Source of the DNA: Spirochaetaceae bacterium
GTDB taxonomy: Bacteria > Spirochaetota > Spirochaetia > DSM-27196 > SLST01
Direction of reading: 5' to 3'
Assembly: GCA_007694025.1 (NCBI GenBank)
Contig: RECL01000108.1
Coordinates: 1-38,028, forward strand
Length of the DNA stretch: 38,028 nucleotides
Below are positions 17,340-31,777 of the stretch, piece by piece; the stretch's first letter is position 1; the number at the start of each line of letters is the position of its first letter. A program made the translations under genes and the position numbers. The notes beneath the pieces were generated by a model. That model had not been told where the DNA came from. It saw only the letters and a program-made list of their open reading frames with translations, and did not search any database.

Positions 17340-17368
17340 AAAAAAAGATGGCCCGGCGTTGCCGGGCC
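17340..17368 (-). terminator. Rho-independent terminator downstream of the Ala/Glu-rich protein gene
   Basis: The minus strand reads GGCCCGGC-AAC-GCCGGGCC followed by ATC and TTTTTTT. That is an 8-bp GC stem, a 3-nt loop and a T7 tract, 20 nt after the stop at 17389. Confidence 0.75.
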
Positions 17369-17388: not shown

Positions 17389-17976
17389 CTATTCGGACTT
17401 TCCGGCTGATTCGCTGTCGGCAGCGTCAGCCGCCGGCTCCTCAGCCGCCGGTTCTTCGGCGCTCGCTGCCTCCGCCACCGGCGGTTCGCTCTCCGACGCA
17501 TCGTCGGTCGGAGCATCGGCCGCCGGCGCTGCGTCATCGGTAGCGGGCTCGGTCTGGGCGGGCTCTTCCGCGCCCTCGGCCGCAGCAGCTTCGGAAGCTG
17601 CAGCTTCGGAAGCTGCTGCTTCGGTAGCCGCAGCTTCGGTAGCCGCAGCTTCCTCAGCTGCCGCCTCTGCCGCCTTTTCTGCCTCCGCAGCCGCCTTTCG
17701 CTCGGCAGCGGCGCGTTCCCGCGCTTCTGCCGCAGCAGCCGCTGCGGCCTCGGCCGCTTCCTTTTCGCGGACTACGCGCTTGCCGTCCTTCTCTTCCCGT
17801 CGCTTTATGTTTGCAAGAGTAGCCTTGCCGGCCTTACTCACGGCAACCTTCTTGCCGTCGAGCTCGACGTCGTAGAGCAGTTTGACACCGCTGCGCCCGG
17901 TAACCGGGCAGGTTCCACGCCCTGAACGAGGCTTCTCCGCCTTCAATGGCGTACCCCTGTGTGCCTTTGACATCAT
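17389..17976 (-). CDS. Hypothetical protein: basic about 65-aa N-terminal domain plus about 130-aa Ala/Glu-rich acidic tail (195 aa)
   Basis: AAGGAGAC precedes ATG 17976 (ATG 17973 is an alternative). The sequence is MSKAHRGTPLKAEKPRSGRGTCPVTGRSGVKLLYDVELDGKKVAVSKAGKATLANIKRREEKDGKR, then EAAEAAAAAAAEARERAAAERKAAAEAEKAAEAAAEEAAATEAAATEAAASEAAASE... It has its own promoter and terminator. I recognise no family. Confidence 0.7.
   Translation of the reverse strand: MMSKAHRGTPLKAEKPRSGRGTCPVTGRSGVKLLYDVELDGKKVAVSKAGKATLANIKRREEKDGKRVVREKEAAEAAAAAAAEARERAAAERKAAAEAEKAAEAAAEEAAATEAAATEAAASEAAASEAAAAEGAEEPAQTEPATDDAAPAADAPTDDASESEPPVAEAASAEEPAAEEPAADAADSESAGKSE
17585..17659 (-). repeat. Five tandem 15-nt units inside the Ala/Glu-rich coding region
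   Basis: Plus strand: GCAGCTTCGGAAGCT x2 (17585..17614), GCTGCTTCGGTAGCC, GCAGCTTCGGTAGCC, then a degenerate GCAGCTTCCTCAGCT. They encode the AASEA/AATEA pentapeptide repeats. A further 15-nt pair lies at 17428..17457 (EEPAA x2). Confidence 0.9.
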
Positions 17977-18002
17977 GTCTCCTTCGGTCGGTGTGAGCAG
18001 CA

Positions 18003-18031
18003 AGCATACAAAGCCGCTTCGCGCGGGTCAA
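18003..18031 (-). promoter_or_regulatory. Putative sigma70-type promoter of the Ala/Glu-rich protein gene
   Basis: The minus strand reads TTGACC (18031..18026) - 17 nt - TATGCT (18008..18003). A 26-nt stretch containing AAGGAG follows before ATG 17976. Confidence 0.4.
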
Positions 18032-18051
18032 TATCTGGCGCAATCAATGAC

Positions 18052-18124
18052 CGGCGCCGTCGAGGCGCCGCTCCGGTCGAATCTGATAATGAAGATCGAG
18101 TCCGGCCCGAGGGCGACCGGACTC
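18052..18124 (-). terminator. Two GC-rich hairpins downstream of the second giant gene (possible terminator region)
   Basis: GAGTCCGG(18098..18105)-N11-CCGGACTC(18117..18124) is followed on the minus strand by the moderately U-rich GAUCUUCAUUAUC. A second hairpin is CGGCGCC(18052..18058)-GTCGA-GGCGCCG(18064..18070). There is no clean U-tract. Confidence 0.3.
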
Positions 18125-18137
18125 AGGTGCATCGTAT

Positions 18138-20990
18138 CTACCGAACCAGGTAGAACTCCACCCTGCGATTGATGAACCGCTCGTCAAGATCACTGAACGG
18201 AATGAGCGGTCGCAACTTGCCCCACCATTCGCGCGTGAACCGGCCACGATCGATGCCACGAGCCGCGAGCGCGTCGAGGATCGTCTCAGTCCGTCCCCGG
18301 CTCAGCGGGATCAGCGTCTGAACATGCTCAAGATCCGAACGCTCGGCGTCGTAGTAGAGGACGCTCACCGCGTGCCCGTGCATGTCGACCCGGTAGTTCG
18401 GGAACTTCCGCAGCGCCGCAGCGAGCTGATCGAGCGCGGCGACGTTCCGCTCCGACAGCTCCTTGTTCCAGTTCAGGTAGCGGGTCGTGTAACCCTCAAA
18501 AATGATGTCGTCGATCAGGATCCGCCGCATCCCGAAGCGCTCTTCGGTCAGTACGTCGACGGTCAGCGTCTCACTGCCCGTGATCACGTTGCCCGATCCG
18601 TCGGTTATCTCGTAGGCGACCTGGTAGTCGGTCGCCATCCGGACGAGCTCGCCTGAAGCGCTTCTCCCGTCCCACTCGAACGATCGAACCGGGTCGCTGC
18701 CGCTGCGCCGGTAGAACTCGGTTCCATCGGGGCGCAGGACACGGATGGTCCACGACGCGATCGGTCTGCCGTCGGCGACGGCGATGACCATATCCACGGT
18801 GTCGGCGACCCCGTCGCCGTCCGGGCGGAATAGCTGAGGCATGAGCCTGAGTGCGACTGCAGCCCGAGTCGGGTCGACGCTGAGCGCGATCGTGTCGGTC
18901 TGCGCCTCCCTGATCGTGCCGTTGCGGTGTTCCACTCGGAGCACGCCGACGTAGCCGCCGTCGGGGGCGCGCTGACCGGTCGCGGTTGTCCCGTCCCAGT
19001 ACGCGGTCCCACGCGGGCTGTCGCCCGTGATCTCTGCGACCACGCGTCCATCGAGCGCGCGAATCTGTCCGACAAACGACACGATCTCTCCGATCGGTTC
19101 GACGAAGGGTATGAACTCGACGATGTCATTCACACCGTCGCCGGTCGGACTCAGGATCGCCGAACTCGCGCGCAGCGCGACCCGCGGAATCGTGTTGTCG
19201 ATCGTCATCGGCGGGCTGACCGCGCGTGGGCGGTTGCCCTTCTCGTAGATCAGGTCGAGCGCCGCGAAGTACTGCGCCTCCGGCATCAGCTGCCCGGCGG
19301 CGTTCCGACCGTCCCACGGGAACTGCGCGGGCAGCGGACCGGTGCCTTCGAACGAAAGCACCTCGTTCGCCTGCGCATCGACGATCCGGAAGCGGTACTC
19401 GGCAATCCCGGTCGGCACCGACAGTTCGGGACGGATGACAACGACGTCACCCTGCCCGTCTCCGTTCGGCGAGAAGTACTCCCTGCTCAGCACGAGCTCA
19501 ACGTCGGTTGGACGCCGGTCAATCGTGACCTGCACGAAGCTGGTTTCGGTCCGGTTTCCAGCCGGATCGGTGCCTACAATGCGGTAGCGGTACGTTCCGT
19601 CGGGAATCGGATTCCCGGCCAGATCGCGACCGTCCCAGACGATCCGGCGATCCGCCACCGGATCGAGCACGAACGACTCGAGCAACGCTCCGGACGCATG
19701 GTCCAAGACTTCACCAACCCACTCGGCGTCATCGGAGATCGTGTGGGTAACCGTGATCGTGTCCTTGAAACCGTCTCCGGTCGGGAGTTCCGGGCTGAAG
19801 ACCCGGTCGGAGACCGCGAAGCTGCCGATCGGGGGCGTCACGTCGAGTACCGCAGTCGCGGTCGCCGACACGACCATCCCGTTCAGGTACCGCGCAGTCA
19901 CTGTCAGCTCGTACTCGCCTTCGGGGGCGCGTTGCGATCGCTCCTGATCCACGTACCCTGTCAGCGGAAGGATCGCAGTCACGGCTGGTGTGATGTCGAC
20001 GCTTCCCGAAACCGGCCCGGTGGCTGAAAGTTCTACGCTGTCAAGCAGATCGGTATTGACGTTCAGGCCGCCGAAGCTCAGGAGCAGCTCGTCGCGCACG
20101 CCGCTGTCGTTCGGGGAGAACGCGAAGCCGCCGCCCGGCATCGCGGACTCGATCACGATCGGACGATCGGCGGTGTCGACCACGACTATGATAGGATCGA
20201 TTCTGCCGAGATTTCCAGCGCGGTCGCGTCCCTCGAGCGTGTAGCGGTACGAGCCATCCGGAACCGGATTACCGGCGATATCACGACCGTCCCATACAAA
20301 CTCGCGTGCCGCGAATCCCTGCCAGAAGACATTGAACACCTCGGCACCGGTGTCGACCGATACGACCCGGCCGGCCCACTCGACCTCTTCGCTGGTCGTC
20401 TGCGTGAGCGTCACGGTCTGACGCGCGCCACGAACGTCTGATCCTGGCGCGAAGTAGAGGTAATCGAGCTCTGCAGTCGCGGTCGGCGGCGTATTATCGA
20501 CGACAACGATCCGCGGATCGCTCGACACGACGTCTTCGGACGCGAGTGTGGCGGTGAGCACGTACGTGTACTCGCCATCGGGTACCCGAGCGCCGTCGGC
20601 GCCGAGCGTGGAGCCCTGGAAGGTACCGTTCCACGTGGTCGAAGCGGGTATAGTAACCGTAGTCTGACGCTGCGCGAGCCCCAGGTTCTGGAAGAGGCGC
20701 CCGAAGAAGCCGGGCTGATCGCTCTGATCGACGGCCGACTCGATCCACACGACGCGATCCTGTTGATCGCGGATCACGATCTCGTACGCGATGACGACGT
20801 TCCGGTTCCCCGATGCGGTGGTGACCGATATCGGGATCGTCAGCTCGTCCTGGACTCCCGGCGACGAGAACGGAGATATATAGACGGTGTCGTCCACCGC
20901 CACGCCGACTTGCGTGCGCTGAGACGCACCCCCCGCGAAGGTCATCGCTGCAACCAGCAGCAGACCACAGGCAACCATCACTCTACGCAT
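18138..20990 (-). CDS. Giant envelope protein B (950 aa): signal peptide, seven FlgD-type Ig-like modules, C-terminal OmpA/MotB-like domain
   Basis: GGAGGAG precedes ATG 20990, giving MRRVMVACGLLLVAAMTFAGG. Repeated motifs include FVWDGRDIAGNPVPDGSYRYTLEGRDRAGN, IVWDGRDLAGNPIPDGTYRYRIVGTDPAGN, FPWDGRNAAGQ, YWDGTTATGQRAPDGGY and FEWDGRSASGE. Module starts include FSPNGDGQGD and SPTGDGVND. The C-terminus reads ...MHGHAV....LSRGR......G....R......NRRVEFYLVR. The ORF-track start at 21200 would overlap the upstream gene. Confidence 0.9.
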   Translation of the reverse strand: MRRVMVACGLLLVAAMTFAGGASQRTQVGVAVDDTVYISPFSSPGVQDELTIPISVTTASGNRNVVIAYEIVIRDQQDRVVWIESAVDQSDQPGFFGRLFQNLGLAQRQTTVTIPASTTWNGTFQGSTLGADGARVPDGEYTYVLTATLASEDVVSSDPRIVVVDNTPPTATAELDYLYFAPGSDVRGARQTVTLTQTTSEEVEWAGRVVSVDTGAEVFNVFWQGFAAREFVWDGRDIAGNPVPDGSYRYTLEGRDRAGNLGRIDPIIVVVDTADRPIVIESAMPGGGFAFSPNDSGVRDELLLSFGGLNVNTDLLDSVELSATGPVSGSVDITPAVTAILPLTGYVDQERSQRAPEGEYELTVTARYLNGMVVSATATAVLDVTPPIGSFAVSDRVFSPELPTGDGFKDTITVTHTISDDAEWVGEVLDHASGALLESFVLDPVADRRIVWDGRDLAGNPIPDGTYRYRIVGTDPAGNRTETSFVQVTIDRRPTDVELVLSREYFSPNGDGQGDVVVIRPELSVPTGIAEYRFRIVDAQANEVLSFEGTGPLPAQFPWDGRNAAGQLMPEAQYFAALDLIYEKGNRPRAVSPPMTIDNTIPRVALRASSAILSPTGDGVNDIVEFIPFVEPIGEIVSFVGQIRALDGRVVAEITGDSPRGTAYWDGTTATGQRAPDGGYVGVLRVEHRNGTIREAQTDTIALSVDPTRAAVALRLMPQLFRPDGDGVADTVDMVIAVADGRPIASWTIRVLRPDGTEFYRRSGSDPVRSFEWDGRSASGELVRMATDYQVAYEITDGSGNVITGSETLTVDVLTEERFGMRRILIDDIIFEGYTTRYLNWNKELSERNVAALDQLAAALRKFPNYRVDMHGHAVSVLYYDAERSDLEHVQTLIPLSRGRTETILDALAARGIDRGRFTREWWGKLRPLIPFSDLDERFINRRVEFYLVR

Positions 20991-21009
20991 ACGTCTCCTC
21001 CGGCGGATT

Positions 21010-23868
21010 CTATTCGAGTATGAAGTCCACTCGTCGATTCTTCCAGGCGTTCTCCCGATCTTCGTGCGGTACGACCGGGTGGACACCCCCCTCGCCGACC
21101 ATCCGCATCCTTCTCTCCGGCACCCCGAGCAGCCGTAGCGCGCTGCCGACCGACTCGGCCCTGCGCCTTGATAGCTCGATCTGTTCGGCGCCTCCCTCAA
21201 TATCGCGCGTCGCGTGCCCGCGAATCAACACGGATCGCTCCGGGTAGCGCGTCAGGAGCGCAGCCACCGTCGCAAGCACCGCCCGGTTCGCACGAAACGC
21301 GTCGACGCCGGAGTCCTCCAGAGAAGCCGAGCCGGCGGCGAAACGCACGTCGGGTACCATGATACGCGGAAGATCGCCATCCCGCAAGAGCATCGCACCG
21401 ACCTCTCCGGAGGTTTCCGCAACCGACCGATTGCCGAATCGATCAACGACCGACAGCCGCGCGCGATACCGGATCAGGCTCGGGACGAGCGTGCCGTCGT
21501 CGGAGCGACCGTCCCACGCCACCCGCGATGGCGGATCGCCGGAGCCCGTCCACGACCGGATCGGCACCAGATCGGGCCCGTAGATGTCGAGTCGCCACGA
21601 CTCGACCGTCGACACCGACACGGCTCCGATGGAAAACTCTGCGATACCGTCGACATCGTCGCCATCCGGCGTGAACACCAACGGGTCGACGGTGAGCGCA
21701 ACATCGGGCGGTCGCCGATGCGGTGGCAGCGAAGCAGCATCGACGGTCAGCGCGAGCGAAGCCGATCCGACCGCGCCGGCGGGAGTCCTGGCACTCAGCG
21801 TGTAGAGGTATTCCCCGTCGGCGACGAGTGCCCCGGATGCATCACGCGCATCCCAGACGAAGACCGGCGGCAGCGTCGCCCAGGAGCGCTCCAGCACCAG
21901 GCGTCCGTCGGGACCGGTGATCCGGGCGACCCATTCGTCGGCCGAGGCACGCTGAGATATCGCTACGGTGTCGCGGTAACCGTCGCCGTCGCTCCGCAGC
22001 ACGCGATACGGCACAGAGAGTTCGTACACCTCGGGCCTTCGACGGCTCACCGTGACCCGTAGCGCATCGCTTGTTACCAGCGCTCCGTTGCCGAACCTGA
22101 CCGACAGCGTCGCGCTGTACTCACCATCAACGACCGTAACGGGTCCGTCTGCATGCCCGTCCCAGACAAAACGATCGTGGAGCCCCGACACGGTCGACTC
22201 CAGGACGACGTGCGCCCCGGCGCGAATCGTCAGCGTCGACGATTCGACCAGATCCGCCGGAGTCGCGGTGGCCCGCAGGGCGATCGACTCACGAAGGCTG
22301 TCGACGACCGGGGCAAAACCAGGAGCGTCGGCATCGAACGACACCGCGCCCACGCGGGTATCGCGCACGACCCGGACGCGGTTGGTCGATCCCCGGTTGC
22401 CCGCGTGGTCGATCCCCTCCAGATGGATCGTGTACACGCCGTCGGGTGCGGCCCCTCCCCCTCCGATCGTGCGGCCGTTGAGGACTCCGTCGACCGACCA
22501 CTCGTACTCTGCCTCGGTGAGGTCGGTGGCGAGCTGCGGCAACGGTATCGTAACGCTGTACGCGTCGGAATCGACCGGCTGCACCAGAACGTTCGCGCTC
22601 CACTGCGCCGGCTCGGACACGACGACGGAGAACCGTACCGTCGGCCGGTCGGAACCACCGAACACGATCGATCCACCGGGCGGGGATGCAAGCGGTGCGG
22701 TAACGGCCGCGAGCGAGCCAAAAGGTGGCTCCGAGTCGACCGAAACGACCACAGGCCGAGACTCGATCCGATGCCCCTCCTGATACCGAACCGACAGCAC
22801 GAGTGAGTACGCGTCGTCGTTCAACAACTGACCCGACACGGCCCTGCCGTCGAATCGGATCTCCCGCGGCGGCGCGCCTGTGCCGCGCGCGACGATGAAG
22901 GCACGGTCAGGATCCCGCCGACCGATCGCGGTGAGGTCGTACGACAGCGCGAGCTCGGGCTCACCGACGCTCGCAGAGAGCGTGACCACGCGCGTCGGCC
23001 CAACCGCGTGCGGCGACAACGCCGGTCCGTCGGCGCTGATCTCGACCGACAGCCCTCTCGCGGCGACCCGGAACGCAACCGATCCGCTCGTGCGATTTCC
23101 GGCTCGATCCTCCCCGTGTAGCTCGTAGCGGTAGATCCCGTCCGGTATCGCACGGCCGGGTCCAGCTTCGCCCGGGGCGAGCACGACCGCGTCCCAGACG
23201 AACTCGGGCGGGGGATGCGGCCCGACCCACTCGCGGCGAAGCCACACGGTGCCATCACCGATGACGGTAGCGGTCCAGAGTTGCCCGCGGTCTCCGGTCT
23301 GCCGGACGCGCAACGGAGCGTCGGGATCGCCCGGCACGACGACCGGAAGATCAACTTCGAGCGGGCCTACGTGCGGGGGCACCCGGTCAACCACGACGGG
23401 TACCAGTGGCGCCACCATCGCGACGCCGGCTCCATCGGTGGCCACAAACTGGAACGCGTACCTGCCGTCGGGGACGGGAGTTCCGTCACGCTCGGTCGAG
23501 CCGCGGTACGTGCCGTCCCATACGATCTGGTCGGGAATCCCATCGGTCTCCGGCAGGCCGCGGATCCGTCGCCACGCGGCTTCCAGAACGCCCGGCTCAC
23601 GCTGTGACCAGACCCATACGCGCTCACCGGCCCGGTCGCCGTCCACCGCGTACACCGCCGCGTCCAGTCGTACAAGCGGTCTGCCCGACGCGTGTTCACG
23701 CGGGGACTCGATCCGAAGCGCGCGCTGCGACGAACCTGCTTGCGGCGACACGTGGATCTCTGTCGAAACGGTCTGCTGTGATGGTGATAGGGCCTCCTGC
23801 GCGCGGCCGGCCGTAAACGCCGTGGCCGAAAGCGTAATCAGGCAGCAGAACAGGACGGTTCGTGTCAT
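21010..23868 (-). CDS. Giant envelope protein A (952 aa), co-linear paralog of B: signal peptide, seven FlgD-type Ig-like modules, OmpA/MotB-like C-terminus
   Basis: ATG 23868 gives MTRTVLFCCLITLSATAFTAGRAQE and shares the A of the upstream TGA (TGATG). Motifs include IVWDGTYRGSTERDGTPVPDGRYAF, FVWDAVVL...AIPDGIYRYELHGEDRAGN, FVWDGHADGPVTVVDGEY, FVWDARDASGALVADGEYLY and VAWDGRSDDGTLV. The C-terminus reads IRGHATRDIEGG..IELSRRRAESV...LG.....M...G.....NRRVDFILE. Confidence 0.9.
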   Translation of the reverse strand: MTRTVLFCCLITLSATAFTAGRAQEALSPSQQTVSTEIHVSPQAGSSQRALRIESPREHASGRPLVRLDAAVYAVDGDRAGERVWVWSQREPGVLEAAWRRIRGLPETDGIPDQIVWDGTYRGSTERDGTPVPDGRYAFQFVATDGAGVAMVAPLVPVVVDRVPPHVGPLEVDLPVVVPGDPDAPLRVRQTGDRGQLWTATVIGDGTVWLRREWVGPHPPPEFVWDAVVLAPGEAGPGRAIPDGIYRYELHGEDRAGNRTSGSVAFRVAARGLSVEISADGPALSPHAVGPTRVVTLSASVGEPELALSYDLTAIGRRDPDRAFIVARGTGAPPREIRFDGRAVSGQLLNDDAYSLVLSVRYQEGHRIESRPVVVSVDSEPPFGSLAAVTAPLASPPGGSIVFGGSDRPTVRFSVVVSEPAQWSANVLVQPVDSDAYSVTIPLPQLATDLTEAEYEWSVDGVLNGRTIGGGGAAPDGVYTIHLEGIDHAGNRGSTNRVRVVRDTRVGAVSFDADAPGFAPVVDSLRESIALRATATPADLVESSTLTIRAGAHVVLESTVSGLHDRFVWDGHADGPVTVVDGEYSATLSVRFGNGALVTSDALRVTVSRRRPEVYELSVPYRVLRSDGDGYRDTVAISQRASADEWVARITGPDGRLVLERSWATLPPVFVWDARDASGALVADGEYLYTLSARTPAGAVGSASLALTVDAASLPPHRRPPDVALTVDPLVFTPDGDDVDGIAEFSIGAVSVSTVESWRLDIYGPDLVPIRSWTGSGDPPSRVAWDGRSDDGTLVPSLIRYRARLSVVDRFGNRSVAETSGEVGAMLLRDGDLPRIMVPDVRFAAGSASLEDSGVDAFRANRAVLATVAALLTRYPERSVLIRGHATRDIEGGAEQIELSRRRAESVGSALRLLGVPERRMRMVGEGGVHPVVPHEDRENAWKNRRVDFILE

Positions 23869-24089
23869 CAGCGGCGAAGTCTGGTTCGGAACTTGACGCC
23901 TGCCACGTCGCACGCGACACGGACGTCCTGCTCGACGTCACGGGTCGCCTCGGCTTCGACGGTGCCTCGCCCGACGTCGACCGCGACCGAGCGGATCGAC
24001 GACACGATCGACAGGCTCTTTCGAAGAAGCACCGCCTTGCTGTCGGTGAGTCCATCGACGATGTAGCGGTACACCTTTTTGCCGAACAT
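23868..24089 (-). CDS. Small (73 aa) HMA-like ferredoxin-fold protein lacking the CxxC metal site
   Basis: MFGKKVYRYIVDGLTDSKAVLLRKSLSIVSSIRSVAVDVGRGTVEAEATRDVEQDVRVACDVAGVKF... aligns position-for-position with the HMA/CopZ pattern (V.GM.C..C...V...L....GV..V.V.L..G.V.V.......I...I...GY), but GMxCxxC reads GLTDSKA. Its stop is coupled to giant gene A. A -10 box sits 6 nt upstream of ATG 24089. GTG 24146 is a longer alternative start. Confidence 0.6.
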   Translation of the reverse strand: MFGKKVYRYIVDGLTDSKAVLLRKSLSIVSSIRSVAVDVGRGTVEAEATRDVEQDVRVACDVAGVKFRTRLRR

Positions 24090-24095
24090 GAGGCG

Positions 24096-24124
24096 ATTGT
24101 ATCGATTGCCACTGGTCGCCACAA
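24096..24124 (-). promoter_or_regulatory. Putative promoter of the HMA-like / giant-protein operon with leaderless geometry
   Basis: The minus strand reads TTGTGG (24124..24119) - 17 nt - TACAAT (24101..24096) - 6 nt - ATG 24089. No SD. Confidence 0.4.
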
Positions 24125-24175: not shown

Positions 24176-24838
24176 ATGAAGCTACTGGCCGAACGAGGCG
24201 CCCCGCCGCGCCCCCGCGAGCGCGCGCTCAGCGCCGGAATACACGTGCTCACCGATGCGGAACTGCTCGCGCTGCTGATCGGGTCGGGTACGGCTCAGCG
24301 CGACGTGCACGCGCTCGCTCGCGACGTGCTCGGTCTGATCGACGACGCAAACGGGGTCCCCGACCAGCAGCGGCTGGGTCAGATAGCGGGTCTGGGACCC
24401 GCAAAGACCGCCGCGATCCTTGCGGCGTTCGAGCTCTCCCGGCGTATCCTGTGCCCCCGGCGCCATCGAATCAGAATGCCCGCCGACGTGCTTCCGATCG
24501 TCGACCGGTTCGCCAGCAGAAACCAGGAGTGCTTCATCGCGCTGAGTCTCAACGGCGCGCACGAGGTGATCGCGTCGCGTATCGTGACCGTGGGGCTCGT
24601 AAACCGGACGGTCGTACACCCCCGCGAGGTGTTCGCCGACTCGATCACCGACCGCGCGGCCGCGATCATGCTCGCGCACAACCATCCGAGCGGAAGCCTT
24701 GAGCCGAGCGCAGAGGACCAGGAGGTGACGACGCGGATGGTTCGCGCCGGCGAGCTGATCGGGATACCGGTACTCGACCACGTGATCTTTTCGGAAAGCG
24801 GCTACTACAGCTTCCTCGAGCACGGGCACCTGCGTTGA
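24176..24838 (+). CDS. radC: RadC-family JAB/MPN-domain protein (220 aa)
   Basis: LSDAELLALLIGSG (HhH region) and the C-terminal JAMM motif MLAHNHPSGSLEPSAEDQEVTTRMVRAGELIGIPVLDHVIF. Confidence 0.9.
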   Translation: MKLLAERGAPPRPRERALSAGIHVLTDAELLALLIGSGTAQRDVHALARDVLGLIDDANGVPDQQRLGQIAGLGPAKTAAILAAFELSRRILCPRRHRIRMPADVLPIVDRFASRNQECFIALSLNGAHEVIASRIVTVGLVNRTVVHPREVFADSITDRAAAIMLAHNHPSGSLEPSAEDQEVTTRMVRAGELIGIPVLDHVIFSESGYYSFLEHGHLR

Positions 24839-25966
24839 TCAGTCGGAAGCGGAGGCGCGGAGACTGCGATGGAGGACCGAATACCGTGCCAGGTAGAACG
24901 CTCGCCATTCGAGTGGCATCGGCTCGCGCAGCAGGCCCGCAAACGACTTCAGCACGAGTCCGTGCGTCGGGTCGTCGCGCACGGTGAAGAACGGCGTACG
25001 CACGTCGCTGACTGTTCGTCCGTGATCTGACCATTCGACCCGCACCCGGTAGACGGCAGTGTCGCCGGTCGGTGCCCAGCGTCCAAACGGAAGCCACGGG
25101 CTCTGCGCGCGGCGCTGGGCCGACACGAAGTTGCCGGTGCTGTGCATCACGACCGACTCGCCGCGGCGCTCCCACGGCTGAAGCACGTGCGGGTGGTGAC
25201 CCCAGACGATGTCGGCGCCGGCGTCGGCAACCTCGCGGAAGAAGGCGGCCTTATCGGCGTCGGGCTCAAGCACGTACTCCTCTCCCGCGTGGATCGCGAC
25301 GACCAGCAGATCGTACCGGTCGGCCCACTCCCGGACCGACGCAAGGAACGATGCGCGTGCAGCGGCGTTCCAGTACGGAACCAGGTAGATGAACGGCTCG
25401 CTGCCCCATACGTTCGAGAACGACGTGATCGACACGAACCCGATTATCCGCCCGCCGTATACGATCGTCGTCGGTTCGATCGGCGCACCGCGGTGCGCGC
25501 GGATACCGTTATGATGGATCACGAGCTCGTCGGATAGCTCATCGTAGACCGCCCACGATGCGGTGATCGAGCTGATCCCGTAGTCGAACGTGTGGTTGTT
25601 CGCGAGCGCGAGCACGGAGAAGCCGGCGCCGAGCGCCGAGCGCAGGTAGGCGATCGACCCGTTGAACAGCGGGTAGCCAGCCGGCGGCCGCGCGGGATCG
25701 ACCGGAAACTCTATGTTGGCAAAACTCAGATCGTCCACAAACAGCATCCGGCGAACCGGATCGTAGAGCCGATCGTAGTCGGGCATCTCAATATTCCGCT
25801 CGTGCTGCATCACATCGCCGACGAAGCTGAGGTAGAGTTCGGTACGCGGCGGCGCGACGCGGCCGGCGCGCGCCGGGCTCGATGGGGGTTCGATCGCGCT
25901 CGCGGTCGATCCGCCTGCAAGCACCAACGCGCCGATCACCGCCAGACCGATCCCGCGTGCGCTCAT
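24839..25966 (-). CDS. CapA-family (PGA_cap) secreted metallophosphatase-like protein (375 aa)
   Basis: Signal peptide MSARGIGLAVIGALVLAGGSTASA. Motifs are SFVGDVM, LANNHTFDYG and IVWGHHPHVLQPWE. ATG 25966 overlaps the upstream TGA (ATGA). Confidence 0.9.
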   Translation of the reverse strand: MSARGIGLAVIGALVLAGGSTASAIEPPSSPARAGRVAPPRTELYLSFVGDVMQHERNIEMPDYDRLYDPVRRMLFVDDLSFANIEFPVDPARPPAGYPLFNGSIAYLRSALGAGFSVLALANNHTFDYGISSITASWAVYDELSDELVIHHNGIRAHRGAPIEPTTIVYGGRIIGFVSITSFSNVWGSEPFIYLVPYWNAAARASFLASVREWADRYDLLVVAIHAGEEYVLEPDADKAAFFREVADAGADIVWGHHPHVLQPWERRGESVVMHSTGNFVSAQRRAQSPWLPFGRWAPTGDTAVYRVRVEWSDHGRTVSDVRTPFFTVRDDPTHGLVLKSFAGLLREPMPLEWRAFYLARYSVLHRSLRASASD

Positions 25967-26901
25967 ACCCGGTACTCCAACAGCGCCGCGACGACCGCAT
26001 CGACCCCGTCGGCAAGCGCAGACAGATCGTACCCGCCTTCGAGCACGTGCACGATCCGTCCGCCGGCACTGGCGATCGCGCAGTCGGTCAGGCGTTCGGT
26101 CATCCACCGATAGACAGCAGGCCCAATCTCCATCGCCGCAAGCGGATCGCGCGAATCGGCGTCGAATCCAGCCGATACGATCAGCATCTGCGGCGCGTAG
26201 TCGGTCAACACAGGGAGCATTTCGGTGAAGGCCTCGCGATGCTCGCGCTCGCCCGAGCCGGCGGGTAGCGGAACGTTGACCGTGTAGCCAAGCCCCTCGC
26301 CCGATCCACGATCGGTGCGCGCACCGGTTCCCGGATAGTGCGGATACTGGTGCAGACTCACGTAGAGTACGTCGGCCCGATCGGCAAAGATCCGTTCGGT
26401 CCCGTTTCCGTGGTGCACATCCCAGTCGACGATCGCAACCCGCTCAATGCCCACCGCGTGCGCGTGCGCGGCGGCGACCGCGGCGGTGTTCACGAAGCAG
26501 AAACCCATCGCACGGTCGGCCTCCGCGTGGTGGCCCGGCGGCCGCGCGACGACGAACGGCCGAGCGGTCGGATCGGCGACGGTGTGATCGACCGCGGCTA
26601 TCGCTGCGCCCGCCGCCGCGCGCGCAGCGCGCCACGTGTGCTCATTTGCGGCGGTATCGGCGTCGAACACGGTGACAGGAGCGGTCTCGGTCGCTTCGAG
26701 CGCGGCCAGGTAGGCGCGGTCGTGGACCGCTGCCAGGCTGTCGATCGATGCCGGTTGTGCGGTCATGAACTCGATACCGCGATCGGCACTCCGGTCGCGC
26801 AACCGACGAAGGATCGCCGGCATCCGCTCGGGACGTTCCGGGTGCACGGATCCCGCCGAGTGGGCAAGACACGCGTCGTCGCTGTAGATCGGCACCGCCA
26901 T
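25963..26901 (-). CDS. Histone deacetylase-family (AcuC / acetylpolyamine amidohydrolase-like) protein (312 aa)
   Basis: RPPGHHAE, DWDVHHGNGT and FDAD..DPL..., ...LEGGYDL are the classical HDAC-fold Zn and active-site motifs. ATG 26901 is supported by a promoter-like element. The ORF-track TTG at 26937 coincides with the -35. Confidence 0.9.
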   Translation of the reverse strand: MAVPIYSDDACLAHSAGSVHPERPERMPAILRRLRDRSADRGIEFMTAQPASIDSLAAVHDRAYLAALEATETAPVTVFDADTAANEHTWRAARAAAGAAIAAVDHTVADPTARPFVVARPPGHHAEADRAMGFCFVNTAAVAAAHAHAVGIERVAIVDWDVHHGNGTERIFADRADVLYVSLHQYPHYPGTGARTDRGSGEGLGYTVNVPLPAGSGEREHREAFTEMLPVLTDYAPQMLIVSAGFDADSRDPLAAMEIGPAVYRWMTERLTDCAIASAGGRIVHVLEGGYDLSALADGVDAVVAALLEYRV

Positions 26902-26908
26902 CGCGGTA

Positions 26909-26937
26909 AGCTTACGCGGGTCTGCGGTTCGGTGCAA
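26909..26937 (-). promoter_or_regulatory. Putative promoter of the HDAC-like / CapA-like operon with leaderless geometry
   Basis: The minus strand reads TTGCAC (26937..26932) - 17 nt - TAAGCT (26914..26909) - 7 nt - ATG 26901. Confidence 0.4.
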
Positions 26938-27823: not shown

Positions 27824-29695
27824 CTACAACAGAACCGTCGACAGCCACGGCCAGTAGGTTATCACGAGCACGATCAGTAGCTGAAGCAGGAAGAACGGCG
27901 CCACGGCGCGATACACCTTCGCGAGCGGCAGCTCGAACCGGTACGACGCAAGAAACAGGTTGAGACCGACCGGCGGCGTGATGAACCCGACTCCCATGTT
28001 CGCGACGAAGATGATTCCCAGGTGAACGGGGTCGACCCCGAAGGCTGCCCCAAGCGGAATGATCAGCGGTGCCACGACCAGGATCGCGCCGAAGATGTCC
28101 ATGAACATCCCGGCAATCAGCAACGCCAGGTTCACCAGAAGCAGGAACACGAACCGTGAACCGATGCTGCCCGCCACCCATGATGTGAGCATCTCCGGTA
28201 TCTGCACGTCGATGATGTAGTACGAGAGCCCACGCGCGAGCGCGACGATCAGCAGTACGCCGCCGACAATCGTCAGCGCCTGCAGGCTGACCGACACCAG
28301 CCGCCTGAGCCCGATCTCGCGATGGATCACGGTCTCGACGAACAGCGTATACACGACGGCAAGCGCTGCGGTCTCTACCAGAGTCGCGATTCCGCTGAAA
28401 TAGACCGCGACGACGATGGCTGGGAGCAGGACCTCCCAGATCGATCCTTTGAGCGCGCTCCACGCCTCCGGAAGGCTGAACGGGACCGACGGCACCTTGT
28501 GCTTGAGCGCGAACACTACTCCGGCGACGCACATTGCGATCACCAGAAGCGCGCCTGGCAGGACCCCACCCAGGAAGAGATCGAAGATGCTGACCCCGGC
28601 GACCGATCCGTACACAATGAGCGCGAGGCTCGGAGGAAAGAGCAGACCGATGCTGCCGCTCGCTGTCAGCGTTCCCACCGCAAAGCCCTGATCGCGGGCC
28701 GGATCACGATTGAGCACGAACAGCAGTAGTCCGCCAAGCGCAAGAATCGTGACCCCCGACGCGCCGGTGAAGGTCGTGAAGAACGTACTCGCAAGAATCG
28801 CCGCGATGAACAACCCGCCCGGCAGCCATCCAAAGAGTGCTCGAAAGAGTCTGACCAGACGCTCACCTGCCTTGCTCTCGCTCAGAAAAAAGCCGGCAAG
28901 CGTGAACAGCGGTATCGCGGGGATCGCGTTGCCTGTCAGCATCACGTAGCTCTCGTTCGCGATCACCTCTATCGACCCGCCGTCGCGCGCGAACAGCAGC
29001 AACGCAACGCCGCCTAAGACGACGAACAGCGGAACACCGATGAACGCAGCGACCACCAGCAGGATCGCAAGCGGCACCGCAGCCACGCGCATCGCGACGA
29101 ACCAGAAGTCGTAGAGCCGGTCGATGATCGGAGGAATCACCGCCGCGTGCGTGTAGACCATCGACGCGATCGCCGACAGCCCGATGACGGTACCGACGAT
29201 CACGCCAACCGCTGCGGCGACTGCTCGGGCAGCACCTCCCGGACCGGCAAGCAGGAATCGGACGCCGATCACCGCGAACGCAAGCGGCATCACCGCAGCG
29301 ACCAGCCACGTCGCGAACAGCCCGACCCGTGATCCGGGCTCGAACCCGATCGCGACGAACGACAGCGACGACCAGAAGAATGCAACGACGATCGTCACCG
29401 TCAGAACCGATCCGAGCGAATCGGCGGCCAGCCGCAGCCGATCGGGCAACGCGTCCACCGCCACGCGTATCGAAAGGTGCCGGCCGTCGCGCGCGGCGAT
29501 CATCCCGCCCAGGAATGACACGACGAGCACCAGATGCAGCAGGTAGCGGTTGTAAGCCGGGATACCGCCCGAATAGAGGAACCGGACTACCACCTCAAGG
29601 ACTGGCAGAACACCGAGCAGCAGCAGCGACACCGACGCAACGACGGACTCGAAGTCCCAGAAAAACGCCGCGACCCGCGATCGTGGTCGCCCCAT
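27824..29695 (-). CDS. TRAP transporter fused small/large permease (DctQ-DctM fusion, 623 aa)
   Basis: An N-terminal 4-TM DctQ-like part (VLEVVVRFLY...) is followed by a DctM-like 12-13 TM part. ATG 29695 directly follows the upstream TAG. Confidence 0.95.
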   Translation of the reverse strand: MGRPRSRVAAFFWDFESVVASVSLLLLGVLPVLEVVVRFLYSGGIPAYNRYLLHLVLVVSFLGGMIAARDGRHLSIRVAVDALPDRLRLAADSLGSVLTVTIVVAFFWSSLSFVAIGFEPGSRVGLFATWLVAAVMPLAFAVIGVRFLLAGPGGAARAVAAAVGVIVGTVIGLSAIASMVYTHAAVIPPIIDRLYDFWFVAMRVAAVPLAILLVVAAFIGVPLFVVLGGVALLLFARDGGSIEVIANESYVMLTGNAIPAIPLFTLAGFFLSESKAGERLVRLFRALFGWLPGGLFIAAILASTFFTTFTGASGVTILALGGLLLFVLNRDPARDQGFAVGTLTASGSIGLLFPPSLALIVYGSVAGVSIFDLFLGGVLPGALLVIAMCVAGVVFALKHKVPSVPFSLPEAWSALKGSIWEVLLPAIVVAVYFSGIATLVETAALAVVYTLFVETVIHREIGLRRLVSVSLQALTIVGGVLLIVALARGLSYYIIDVQIPEMLTSWVAGSIGSRFVFLLLVNLALLIAGMFMDIFGAILVVAPLIIPLGAAFGVDPVHLGIIFVANMGVGFITPPVGLNLFLASYRFELPLAKVYRAVAPFFLLQLLIVLVITYWPWLSTVLL

Positions 29696-30703
29696 CTACC
29701 GGCGCCTGTACTCGTCGAGTATCCGCTCGATCCGCGCGGTCATGTCGACACCGAACACAGTGTTCATCTGGGCTCTGAACCGCTCGATATCGCGCTCCCA
29801 TGCGTCAAGAACCTCCGGCGTTGCATCGGTGACCGACAGCCCGAACCGGCGCATCGTCGCGATTGCCTCGGACTCGAGCGACCGAACGTCGCGGTCGATC
29901 TGCTGCGACACCGAGCGCGCAGCGTCGCGCAGATCCTCCCGGATCGCCGCGGGCAACCGTCGCCACGCGGCGTCGGTGATCACGATCGCACCCAGAAACG
30001 GTGCTACCTTGAGATCGAGCATGTTCGGGGCGAGCCCGAACCACTGGTACCCGGCAGCGACAAGCGGGGAGGTGTAGAACGCGTCGACCAGTCCGCTGTT
30101 GAGCCCGGTGAGGACTTCACCAACGGGGAGCGGGATCGGACGGAAGTTCATGATCTTGAACGCCTGGTCCATCTCCGCGTCGTCCGGGTCTGCGGCCAGG
30201 CGCAACGCGCGCAGGTCATCGGGATAGCGGACCGGTGACTTACTGAAAAAATGGACCCACCCGGCAGCGGACCACGCGAGCACGTGAAAACGCGCCGCTT
30301 CGAACGACGCCTCCAGGTCGGGTCGGATGCGGTCCATCACGTGCGATAGCTCCTCATCCGAGCCGATCAGAAACGGCGTACTGACCGCGAAGACCTCCGG
30401 CACGAGCTGCTTGAGCCCGGCCGACGTGAGCACGCCGGCCTGCAGCTGGCCGATCCGCATCTTGCGGATCACGTCGCTCTCTTCGCCGGCAATCGCGTTG
30501 TGGTAGACACGAAGGCGAACACGGTTGTTCGATATTCGACCCCAGTCACGCGCCAGCTGGTTCAGCGCGGCTCCCCACGGCGACGCTTCCGGAGCGACGC
30601 TCGCGAGCTTGATCTCCTGCGCGGATGCCGCGGCGGGAATCGCGAAAACGAGCGCGACCGTCGCGACGACTCGAACCAGCATGATGTTCAGTAGCTTGCT
30701 CAA
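29696..30703 (-). CDS. TRAP transporter substrate-binding protein (DctP family, TatP(T)-like), 335 aa
   Basis: Signal peptide ...AIPAAASAQE, then IKLASVAPEASPWG....L.....SN.RV.L.VY......GEESD..RKMRIGQLQ is DctP-like. TTG 30703 overlaps the tatT stop (TTGA) with GAGGAGG 9 nt upstream. Confidence 0.9.
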   Translation of the reverse strand: MSKLLNIMLVRVVATVALVFAIPAAASAQEIKLASVAPEASPWGAALNQLARDWGRISNNRVRLRVYHNAIAGEESDVIRKMRIGQLQAGVLTSAGLKQLVPEVFAVSTPFLIGSDEELSHVMDRIRPDLEASFEAARFHVLAWSAAGWVHFFSKSPVRYPDDLRALRLAADPDDAEMDQAFKIMNFRPIPLPVGEVLTGLNSGLVDAFYTSPLVAAGYQWFGLAPNMLDLKVAPFLGAIVITDAAWRRLPAAIREDLRDAARSVSQQIDRDVRSLESEAIATMRRFGLSVTDATPEVLDAWERDIERFRAQMNTVFGVDMTARIERILDEYRRR

Positions 30704-31674
30704 AACGCGTCATCCTCCTCTTCCGGCCAGTCGAGCAGGAAGAACTCCTCGATATTCGCCAGATACCACGCTGCCTTGCGTTGCGACAGCACGTTCACAA
30801 GTCGCGCGTCGGGGTACGCGTCGGCGTCAACCGCGAGTGCGCGCTCCATCAGCTCAATGAACAGATCGACGTCCTGCGATGGAATCGCGAACGTCTCTGC
30901 GTAACTTATATAGGGACCGGCCAGACGTCCGTCGGCGATCCGGATCAGCCGGTCATAGTGGTACTTCGCCTTCGCCCGATCTCCACCCATCGTCGGAGGG
31001 ACGCTCGCGTAGTACTGCAGCAGGAAGTCGTGGAGCGCGCCGTCGTTGAACTCGTCGTCAAGTTCGACCGCGCGGAGCATCAGCGGCAGGGCGCGCGGGA
31101 CGGAAAACGCGAGCTCCAGATCGAACGGGTCGAGTCCGAAGGCAGCGACCCATCCGGCGCCGATCCAGTAAAGGTACGCGACGTCGCGCGCGCGCATTCG
31201 GGCCAGGTACGGCTTGACTGCCGCCGCATCGGTGGCAAAAAGCGCGTCGCGAAACCCCGAATAACGAACGTCCAGACCCCTGATCACGTACTCGCGACCG
31301 CGAAGGTAGAGCGCCTTCGCGCGCCGCTGCATCGACTCTTTACGGTCCCACTCATAGAACGGAAGCATCGAGGCGGGCGTCGCAACAAACGCGTTCGCGT
31401 AGGAGATGAAGCCGCTGCCGGTAGCAAGGAGGAGCCCTTCGTGCCGCGGCGTCTGCTCCAGGATGCTCTCGAACAGCTTCAGCGCGAACGGAAGCGCGTC
31501 CCCAACCAGCTCCGGGTCGGCGTCGGTAGTGAAGGTCGAAACGCCGTCACCGTCGGTTCCCGCGAGCGTGTCGGCAAGCACGTTGACGGCGAGTCGGTTG
31601 ATCGAACAGCTAGTGAGCCCCACTACCAGCGCCATGATGGCACCGATCACCGGCAACAATCGTCGAACGGTCAT
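30700..31674 (-). CDS. tatT: TRAP-associated TPR-like lipoprotein TatT (324 aa)
   Basis: The lipoprotein signal is MTVRRLLPVIGAIMALVVGLTSC. It is followed by SINRLAVNVLADTLAG........F..D.DPELVGDALPFALKLFESILEQTPRHEGLLLA...GFISYANAFV, the conserved TatT-family N-terminus. It sits immediately upstream of the dctP-like and fused permease genes, as in Treponema pallidum. Confidence 0.85.
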   Translation of the reverse strand: MTVRRLLPVIGAIMALVVGLTSCSINRLAVNVLADTLAGTDGDGVSTFTTDADPELVGDALPFALKLFESILEQTPRHEGLLLATGSGFISYANAFVATPASMLPFYEWDRKESMQRRAKALYLRGREYVIRGLDVRYSGFRDALFATDAAAVKPYLARMRARDVAYLYWIGAGWVAAFGLDPFDLELAFSVPRALPLMLRAVELDDEFNDGALHDFLLQYYASVPPTMGGDRAKAKYHYDRLIRIADGRLAGPYISYAETFAIPSQDVDLFIELMERALAVDADAYPDARLVNVLSQRKAAWYLANIEEFFLLDWPEEEDDAF

Positions 31675-31681
31675 GGCGAGC

Positions 31682-31710
31682 AGAATACGGCCACGCACCC
31701 ATCCTGTCAA
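31682..31710 (-). promoter_or_regulatory. Putative promoter of the tatT-TRAP operon with leaderless geometry
   Basis: The minus strand reads perfect TTGACA (31710..31705) - 17 nt - TATTCT (31687..31682) - 7 nt - ATG 31674. Confidence 0.45.
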
Positions 31711-31777
31711 CGTAAACGTCGCTGCGGTGGCGGCGCAACGCCGCGCCGATGCCGGCGGCCGCACCGGCCACCCGTCG

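Follow-up and report, generated by a model that had tools for sequence, protein, structure and literature searches.

A clade-specific and very probably leaderless spirochaetal operon for a small HMA-fold protein and two collinear Ig/OmpA-like proteins

The operon described here lies in contig RECL01000108.1 of a Spirochaetaceae bacterium (assembly GCA_007694025.1); the whole stretch of 38,028 nucleotides (nt) that was analysed is referred to as the window. Three open reading frames (ORFs) of the minus strand, taken from the ORF list, form the unit: a gene for a mini-protein of 73 amino acids (aa; 23868..24089), the gene for protein A (21010..23868, 952 aa) and the gene for protein B (18138..20990, 950 aa). 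All three were found as an initial annotation, made from the sequence alone, had claimed, and the same is true for two details of their spacing. The stop codon of the mini-protein gene and the start codon of A have one base in common (TGATG), and the gap of 19 nt between A and B holds a Shine-Dalgarno-like GGAGGAG (20995..21001, minus strand; read from the sequence), 4 nt before the ATG of B. Going by this layout, a common transcript with A and B and translational coupling to A are predicted for the mini-protein. The operon, which belongs to an uncultured high-GC spirochaete, is specific to its clade and very probably leaderless. Related loci or contigs obtained from genome and metagenome scans are labelled with L-numbers (L001, L084 and so on).

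A and B can be aligned from end to end with 27% identity (E-value 1e-54). In Pfam, both score above the cut-off of 27 bits for FlgD_ig (PF13860), with 54.4 bits for A and 82.6 bits for B, and the profile check thus agrees with the assignment of the modules to the FlgD-type immunoglobulin (Ig)-like domains. The same type of Ig-like module is known from the FlgD hook cap, the fibronectin (Fn) domains of the streptococcal C5a peptidase and the CHU_C domains of Bacteroidota (type IX secretion system (T9SS) type B); the signatures of this type in A and B are SPNGDGxxD and WDG..G..PDG.Y...D.AGN. B also matches CHU_C with 72 bits at residues 504-583 of 950, i.e., in the internal module 5, unlike the T9SS type B sorting domain (TIGR04131), which is C-terminal. 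The closing motif (W-D-G...P-D-G-x-Y) was found seven times in A, about 108 residues apart (at 117, 225, 339, 457, 569, 672 and 785). For B, a regular expression found five closing motifs, modules 3 and 7 being degenerate. The SPNGDGxxD-type opener is clear in B (six matches of the regular expression) and largely decayed in A (no match). Of the two module signatures named in the initial annotation, the closing one was therefore recovered, and the opener in B but not in A.

A structure was modelled with AlphaFold2 for A only, and the fold of B is deduced from its collinearity with A. The model of A has a mean predicted local distance difference test (pLDDT) score of 81.4 and comprises a signal helix, a disordered linker, seven all-beta blocks (residues ~38-165, 186-270, 275-380, 384-505, 508-610, 614-712 and 722-825; pLDDT mostly 80-90) and a C-terminal domain. 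The secondary structure together with the seven closing motifs delimits seven predicted beta-sandwich modules at 21394..23757 (minus strand, residues ~38-825). With B collinear, the count of seven modules per protein holds. A Foldseek search with full-length A returned tandem beta-sandwich proteins (macroglobulin (MG) domains of alpha-2-macroglobulin and complement, GhpA, mastigonemes) with template modelling (TM) scores of 0.1-0.2, which indicates a generic Ig-like rod only.

The C-terminal part of the model of A (residues 826-951) is a beta-alpha-beta-alpha-beta domain. This OmpA-like domain (21013..21393, minus strand, residues ~826-952) was delimited by Pfam, a PDB profile match and AlphaFold2; it scores 45 bits for Pfam OmpA (PF00691, cut-off 27.2) and matches the D3 domain of Treponema pallidum Tp0624 with an E-value of 8e-8 and YiaD in the PDB with 2e-10. 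In B, the OmpA-like domain (18141..18551, minus strand, residues ~814-950; delimited by the family alignment and PDB 5wtp) is divergent. Pfam OmpA gave no match in B at E <= 0.01, and the domain was matched only by NCBIfam models of the YiaD/OmpA type (3.9e-8) and by PDB 5wtp (5.9e-4); the B orthologue of L099 has a precomputed OmpA match classed as 'weak'. Hence, the OmpA-like end proposed for both proteins is present in A according to Pfam, and in B according to the NCBIfam OmpA-type models and PDB 5wtp but not Pfam. The profile of the wider family, to which both proteins belong, matches OmpA-like domains in the PDB with E-values of 1e-16 to 1e-18, including Tp0624 (5jir).

The canonical peptidoglycan-binding motif is TD(x)7NxxLSxxRA, whereas the spirochaetal homologues of Tp0624 have TAD(x)6[E/Q]xxLSxxRA and have lost the Asp which binds diaminopimelic acid (DAP) (PMC5104382). 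For Tp0624, DAP binding was not detected, which its authors weighed against the ornithine-type wall of most spirochaetes (PMC5104382). The motif of A, GHATRD(x)6QxxLSRRRA, is of the Tp0624 type (TxD(x)6[E/Q]xxLSxxRA); however, an Ig rod is absent from Tp0624, and its N-terminal tandem unit is a different one. From Tp0624, most members of the wider family, B among them, differ by a longer loop, GHA(x)~13E...L.PLS..RA, within the consensus EGHA(x)~13 E...L.PLS..RA...G.GG..P...WKNRRVEF. B deviates further (GHA...PLSRGRT, WWGKLRP, F(I/V)NRRVEF), and these changes are common to the B orthologues. Pal, the C-terminal domain of OmpA, YiaD and MotB (PF00691) have the same fold and the C-terminal NRRVEF signature; in contrast to these canonical proteins, the other end of A and B bears neither a lipid anchor nor a barrel or transmembrane segment. 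Compared to the canonical motif, the Arg is kept in A, B and the family consensus, while Asp and Asn are lost. The doubt which the initial annotation had cast on canonical peptidoglycan binding, based on GHAT and GHAV, was thus justified. The OmpA-like domain of B is 77% identical among its orthologues, which share the deviations, and such conservation suggests a functional domain for which canonical DAP binding would not be expected. The domains of A and B may bind the spirochaetal wall.

For both A and B, a Sec signal peptide cleaved by signal peptidase I (SPase I) is predicted. Lipoprotein anchoring via the Cys at residue 8 of both proteins was considered and rejected because the hydrophobic stretch before this Cys is too short; further, the B orthologues of L089 and L090 have no Cys in their signal peptides. 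Having no usable lipobox, A and B would most simply be soluble periplasmic proteins. Their best NCBIfam family is NF053608 (Lsa66_OmpA), with 127 bits for A and 150 bits for B. Since the equivalog cut-off of this family is 700 bits, A and B are relatives of Lsa66 and not orthologues. Lsa66 of Leptospira interrogans (LIC10258) is likewise an exported spirochaetal protein with FlgD_ig-like repeats and a C-terminal OmpA-like domain. It differs from A and B in its length (~580 aa), its fewer modules, its origin from a DAP-containing leptospire and its description as an adhesin for the host matrix, whereas A and B belong to an uncultured non-leptospiral spirochaete.

This relationship raises the alternative that A and B are surface-exposed or secreted adhesins like Lsa66, in which case A would evolve fast due to its exposure to phage, grazers or antagonists. 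In vitro, binding of Lsa66 to laminin, fibronectin and plasminogen was observed, and immunofluorescence detected it on intact cells. Rods of tandem Ig domains are a typical feature of fibrillar adhesins, and the Foldseek matches include GhpA and large adhesion proteins. [quoted passage not shown]

The domain types also allow for a role in the periplasmic flagellar apparatus, either as FlgD-like scaffolds or as MotB-like stator anchors, considering the FlgD_ig matches, weak NCBIfam FlgD matches and MotB-type matches over the C-terminal domain. However, the FlgD matches cover only the Ig part (25-60 bits, with cut-offs of 230-383), and neither the N-terminal domain of FlgD nor the transmembrane segment or plug of MotB is present in A or B. 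Flagellar genes were found neither in the window nor, like envelope-machinery genes, beside the 80 family loci described next. We therefore consider a flagellar role highly improbable.

A genome scan seeded with the C-terminal signature gave 584 confirmed loci, and the neighbourhoods of the best 80 were examined with flanks of 8 kb. These 80 loci all belong to metagenome-assembled genomes of Spirochaetota (Spirochaetaceae, Treponemataceae, Alkalispirochaeta, Sediminispirochaeta, Rectinema and others). The best identity to them is 33-34%, with alignments of 700-1000 residues at 25-34%. A and B have the nearly invariant columns of the family, and also its signal peptide, its tandem FlgD_ig modules and its end GHA...PLS..RA...WKNRRVEF. 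A and B are members of a large, annotated and barely studied spirochaetal family. No functional study of FlgD_ig/PF13860 proteins from non-leptospiral spirochaetes was found in the literature. The statement that no characterised system has this composition was half right, as the family is annotated and has one studied relative, Lsa66.

A single family gene of ~880-2240 aa is present in 80 of the 80 best loci, and the tandem pair A-B was found only in the clade of the window. A neighbour-joining tree with 200 bootstraps recovered A and B each as monophyletic (100%) and grouped A with the single-copy genes of ~1000 aa (99%); a group of A and B had 0% support. In L016, L029 and L045, RadC divergently adjoins the single-copy gene, just as it adjoins the mini-protein gene and A in the window. 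Based on this adjacency and the 99% grouping, A corresponds to the single-copy gene both by position and by phylogeny. For B, two origins are conceivable: it could be an older paralogue or have diverged fast after the duplication. The initial annotation had suggested an old tandem duplication retained as a pair. Old paralogues they are, given that each is fully monophyletic, but the pair was not retained in all lineages, as A has been deleted in at least four contigs. Downstream of the 80 loci, only YceG (16 loci; YceG-DnaG subfamily) and Pan_kinase (6 loci) stand out as recurrent context.

Another subfamily, comprising 22 of the 80 loci, also has a small ORF in front of the family gene. The end of this helical ORF of ~60-70 aa coincides with or closely precedes the start of a family member of ~1340-1450 aa (e.g., L003 508-705, L026 6530-6778, L060 2189-2425 and L079 961-1155) and shows the pattern ..LYLFLK..EEELD...LY..LSIEEME.LE.LY... 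It has no Pfam family; a YkgJ-like CxxCxxCC gene is located upstream and YceG(MltG)-DnaG downstream. The upstream ORF of L003 was considered as a homologue of the mini-protein and rejected because it belongs to this unrelated helical family.

Within the clade of the window, the trio and the same neighbourhood were found in L001, L084/L085, L092 and L099, with mini-proteins 51-99% identical to that of the window. As far as the contigs reach, the gene order is (HDAC - dNK/PGA_cap) - RadC(-) - mini-protein - A - B - small Ala-rich protein - TauE - DJ-1. The co-occurrence of the mini-protein, A and B in related genomes is therefore seen in this clade, but not in the 80 other family loci. Some contigs lack A. 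In L089, a B orthologue (54% identity to B, 27% to A) begins 63 nt after the mini-protein gene. In L090, L093, L094 and L095, 135-286 nt separate the mini-protein gene from the B orthologue and no intact A is present. These spacers (L090 623-908, L093 1078-1312, L094 533-667 and L095 426-652) contain relics of a decayed A-type 3' end, encoding the OmpA-like domain, with stop codons and frameshifts, e.g., EEVLRRYPDREIL and DNLWKNRPVEFILDR. In tblastn, the relics match A-type C-termini with E-values of 6e-9 to 8e-4 and B-type C-termini only with E >= 0.09. Due to these A-type relics beside a retained B, the order mini-protein - A - B must be ancestral to the clade; A was deleted later and B was kept. 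B is kept in every sampled lineage of the clade except for the L086-type loci, which have the mini-protein alone.

The evolutionary rates of the two paralogues differ likewise. Between the window and L084/L092/L099, A is 36% identical and B 57% (B orthologues overall 52-58%); the mini-protein is 70% identical to those of L084/L092 and 51% to that of L099. The ratio of non-synonymous to synonymous substitution rates (dN/dS) between the window and L001 is 0.24 for A, 0.07 for B (N-terminal 423 codons), 0.03 for the mini-protein and 0.04 for RadC. Among the B orthologues, module 1 (65-74%) is conserved best besides the OmpA-like domain and the middle modules less; module 1 of A is poorly conserved (31-34%). 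B is constrained, whereas A is relaxed, fast-evolving and dispensable. Conservation of B at both ends is in line with a protein that has an anchor and a specific tip at opposite ends and spacer modules in between. Concerning the adhesin alternative, the dN/dS of A, its repeated loss and its poorly conserved distal module 1 would speak for surface exposure; however, a value of 0.24 stands for relaxed purifying and not for positive selection. Taking all points together, we regard adhesins as a less probable explanation, though one which retains some weight.

The same data bear on the heteromeric, peptidoglycan-anchored Ig array proposed in the initial annotation, here taken as an obligate complex of A and B with the mini-protein as dedicated accessory, such as a chaperone or assembly factor. 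This proposal has the tight operon with its stop/start overlap and strong ribosome-binding site on its side, as well as the collinearity of A and B module for module. Further, the trio and its flanking genes were kept although the mini-proteins are only 51-70% identical, and the mini-protein gene lies upstream of B in every B-containing contig seen. However, A was deleted with relics left behind in at least four contigs which keep B, and the family is single-copy in all 80 other loci, which makes an obligate heteromer of A and B unlikely. The heteromeric pair is thus unsupported on two counts, and with the properties of the mini-protein given below also speaking against the proposal, its probability as a whole appears quite small.

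The mini-protein gene is a real gene with its start at 24089. Compared with L001, its 73 codons have 11 substitutions, all of them at codon position 3, and ten of these are synonymous. A GTG start giving 92 aa, as in the gene call of L001, was rejected because there are non-synonymous changes in the 19 extra codons and the ATG is the start in all homologues. AlphaFold2 predicts a beta-alpha-beta-beta-alpha-beta fold (pLDDT 88.8) with strands at residues 5-12, 32-38, 43-48 and 66-71 and helices at 16-27 and 53-63. In a Foldseek search of the PDB, HMA domains make up nearly the whole of the top 50 (CCS domain 1, ZntA, Atx1, PacS, CopZ and others; TM 0.64-0.81). On the level of the predicted structure, the label 'HMA-like' is thereby confirmed. 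Sequence searches gave less: Pfam HMA (PF00403) was not matched even at E <= 10, nor was any other Pfam family, and a PDB profile search aligned HMA domains in register with the mini-protein only weakly (E 0.019-0.6).

The mini-protein had also been described as Cys-less, which is incorrect. A single Cys at residue 60 is invariant in the 15 closest homologues and at least 90% conserved in 35 diverse members; what is missing is the CxxC. The GMxCxxC loop is absent from all of the ~45 family sequences inspected, and the loop of the window reads D-G-L-T-D-S-K. In a by-eye alignment to the HMA consensus aIe.aGy, Cys 60 takes a hydrophobic core position of HMA helix 2. An exhaustive profile search returned 77 representatives at E <= 1e-3, nearly all standalone proteins of 68-81 aa. 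The mini-protein has a basic C-terminal tail and no signal peptide. It is a predicted cytoplasmic member of a small, unannotated family of 70-80-aa HMA-fold proteins without metal-binding cysteines.

Its fold is like that of CopZ, Atx1 and the N-terminal domains of P1B-ATPases, and the operon could accordingly be a metal-handling unit with the mini-protein as metallochaperone; one source names a homologue CopZ, and one distant homologue comes after a gene for a MerR-type regulator. Unlike HMA metallochaperones, however, the family has neither the metal-binding loop nor contexts related to metal transport and does have the basic tail. The one conserved Cys would be buried in helix 2, Pfam HMA gave no match, and no metal transporter is located nearby in the window. 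There is very little to recommend a role in metal handling.

The contexts of the mini-protein were surveyed in several ways. By tblastn, it was found beside other family members only in the close relative L001 among all fetched loci, and a hidden Markov model (HMM) built from 35 diverse members gave no hit in L002-L083 and none in any of the 80 other Ig/OmpA loci. A general association of the mini-protein with the Ig/OmpA family was thus rejected. A metagenome scan with an alignment of closer homologues yielded six loci. In L086, L087, L088 and L098, the mini-protein gene lies between a histone-deacetylase-family gene and NUDIX-dNK genes and no Ig/OmpA gene is nearby; in L101, it is found among unannotated small ORFs. 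In L100 (6591-7219), 2 nt separate the end of a MerR/HTH_17-type regulator gene from the start of the distant homologue P0104 (33% identity), and this hints at a regulatory partner for the mini-protein family. The idea of a mini-protein dedicated to A and B is not supported on these grounds, i.e., its lack of a signal peptide, with A and B being exported, its absence beside all other family members and its occurrence in contexts without an Ig/OmpA gene. We infer that a structural partnership with the exported proteins is improbable.

The element in front of the mini-protein gene (24096..24124, minus strand) was read from the sequence and consists of a -35 box TTGTGG (24124..24119), a spacer of 17 nt and a -10 box TACAAT (24101..24096), which is followed after 6 nt by the ATG. 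The -35 box fits the consensus at three of six positions only, and a generic consensus scan left the element unlisted. Nevertheless, the geometry (TTGAGC-like box, 17 nt, TAnnAT, 6 nt, ATG) is common to ten lineages, while the spacer sequences vary. A Shine-Dalgarno sequence upstream of the ATG is found neither in the window, where no purine-rich site follows TACAAT, nor in the ten lineages. The relatives L086 and L088, in contrast, have TTGACC-17-TATCTA and then a leader of 17 nt with GGAG..GAGG before the mini-protein gene. The leaderless promoter is therefore specific to the clade in which the mini-protein gene heads the Ig/OmpA operon. The shared geometry, the differing spacers and the contrast to L086/L088 are good evidence for a functional promoter yielding a leaderless mRNA, and the element is very probably functional in this way. 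The leaderless start claimed before is consistent with the spacing between the -10 box and the ATG. In the leader-bearing loci (L086 8940-9030, L088 8930-9012), the mini-protein gene lies between the HDAC-family gene and NUDIX.

After B, two hairpins were found (18044..18125, minus strand), as described initially. The first (18125..18097, 11 pairs) resembles an intrinsic terminator and the second spans ~18080..18044; the fold has an energy of -42 kcal/mol (z = -2.45). As the gene after B has its own promoter-like site and terminator, the operon most likely stops at these hairpins, judging from the sequence. This gene (17389..18003, minus strand), directly after B, encodes a protein whose N-terminus is basic and whose long tail is of low complexity and rich in Ala and Glu. 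The listed ORF has 204 aa, and the real start is probably an ATG at ~17977; the promoter-like site is TTGACC-17-TATGCT (18031..18003) and the terminator lies at 17368..17350. Counterparts of 160-208 aa come after B in L084, L092 and L099, and its product has no Pfam family. Rfam and tRNA scans of the window gave no matches.

On balance, we favour the reading that A and B are independent, wall-anchored rods of the periplasm and that the mini-protein is co-expressed with them but not a structural partner. Sec export and cleavage by SPase I would release A and B into the periplasm, where each would fold into a rod of seven FlgD_ig-type beta-sandwich modules with a spirochaete-type OmpA-like end. 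The latter would dock the rod non-covalently on the peptidoglycan, presumably of the ornithine type. An Ig module is about 4 nm long. The rod would project ~25-30 nm, and its N-terminal module would be the distal tip contacting a partner or a membrane, so that each protein might serve as a wall-anchored strut or tether. A and B most likely act independently; B would be the constrained core component and A, orthologous by position to the single-copy gene, a fast-evolving and dispensable accessory. For the mini-protein, the reasons for co-expression are probably historical or regulatory.

Several observations weigh against this reading. The 8-kb flanks miss paralogues elsewhere in a genome, and L019 and L037 are two copies on one contig. 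The tree was computed by neighbour-joining only, and the basal position of B could reflect accelerated divergence after the duplication. The OmpA-like domains are without the canonical Asp and Asn, and Tp0624, which has a similar motif, did not bind DAP. The periplasmic location of A and B is inferred, and Lsa66, the only studied relative, was reported as possibly surface-exposed. Finally, about ten lineages have the mini-protein gene directly in front of one or both Ig/OmpA genes, also where A was lost, and its promoter is conserved; this stable adjacency leaves room for a functional link between the mini-protein and B.

A more far-reaching alternative would turn this last point into the centre of the system. 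In this case, the promoter, the mini-protein, A where present, and B would constitute a true functional module in which the HMA-fold protein works from the cytoplasm and influences how B-type rods are expressed or exported. B would combine a remodelled, strongly conserved OmpA-like domain with a conserved N-terminal tip, and the wider family would provide the missing tether or spacer between wall and membrane in the spirochaetal periplasm. To our knowledge, spirochaetes have no link of the Braun-lipoprotein type. This alternative is improbable.

Much of the locus was known before, including the module types (FlgD_ig, OmpA-like, HMA fold), the architecture class (Lsa66) and the divergent anchor motif (Tp0624). 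Particular to it are the tandem pair with its asymmetric evolution and the documented deletion of one copy, the remodelled B-type anchor and the Cys-poor HMA-fold mini-protein under a conserved leaderless promoter. The locus is a local variant within a known family and no new system. How spirochaetes place a thin peptidoglycan between two membranes, with room left for the periplasmic flagella, is poorly understood, and exported Ig rods with a spirochaete-type OmpA-like anchor, present across the phylum, are a reasonable candidate for a part of this periplasmic architecture. Beyond one paper on a Leptospira adhesin, the Ig/OmpA family has hardly been studied. The locus offers a natural experiment, with one paralogue constrained at both ends and the other drifting and deleted in several lineages, and the contrast shows which copy and which domains should be tested first. 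In addition, it brings to light small HMA-fold proteins which lack metal ligands and form an unannotated family, and it presents a leaderless promoter as a clean case for comparison. No current view is overturned; the findings are a useful pointer for spirochaete envelope biology and no surprise to the specialist.

The surroundings of the operon gave some further observations. Divergently upstream, a RadC-like JAB-domain gene is located at 24176..24838 (plus strand). A RadC-like gene is found in this position also in L016, L029, L045, L084, L089, L092, L093, L094 and L099. Since the mini-protein gene lies between RadC and the Ig/OmpA gene in the clade and is absent in L016, L029 and L045, the adjacency of RadC and the Ig/OmpA gene predates the arrival of the mini-protein. 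Next to RadC, the longest-ORF calls of a PGA_cap (CapA-like) gene (24839..26107, minus strand) and a histone-deacetylase-family gene (25963..26937, minus strand) overlap by ~145 nt, and the real start of PGA_cap is probably further downstream. In L084, a dNK gene is situated between these two, which is missing in the window. At 27824..31764 (minus strand), the window encodes a tripartite ATP-independent periplasmic (TRAP) transporter made up of DctP, a DctQ-DctM fusion and a protein of the TAtT (T-component) family. This last family is typical of spirochaetes, in agreement with the taxonomy assigned to the window.

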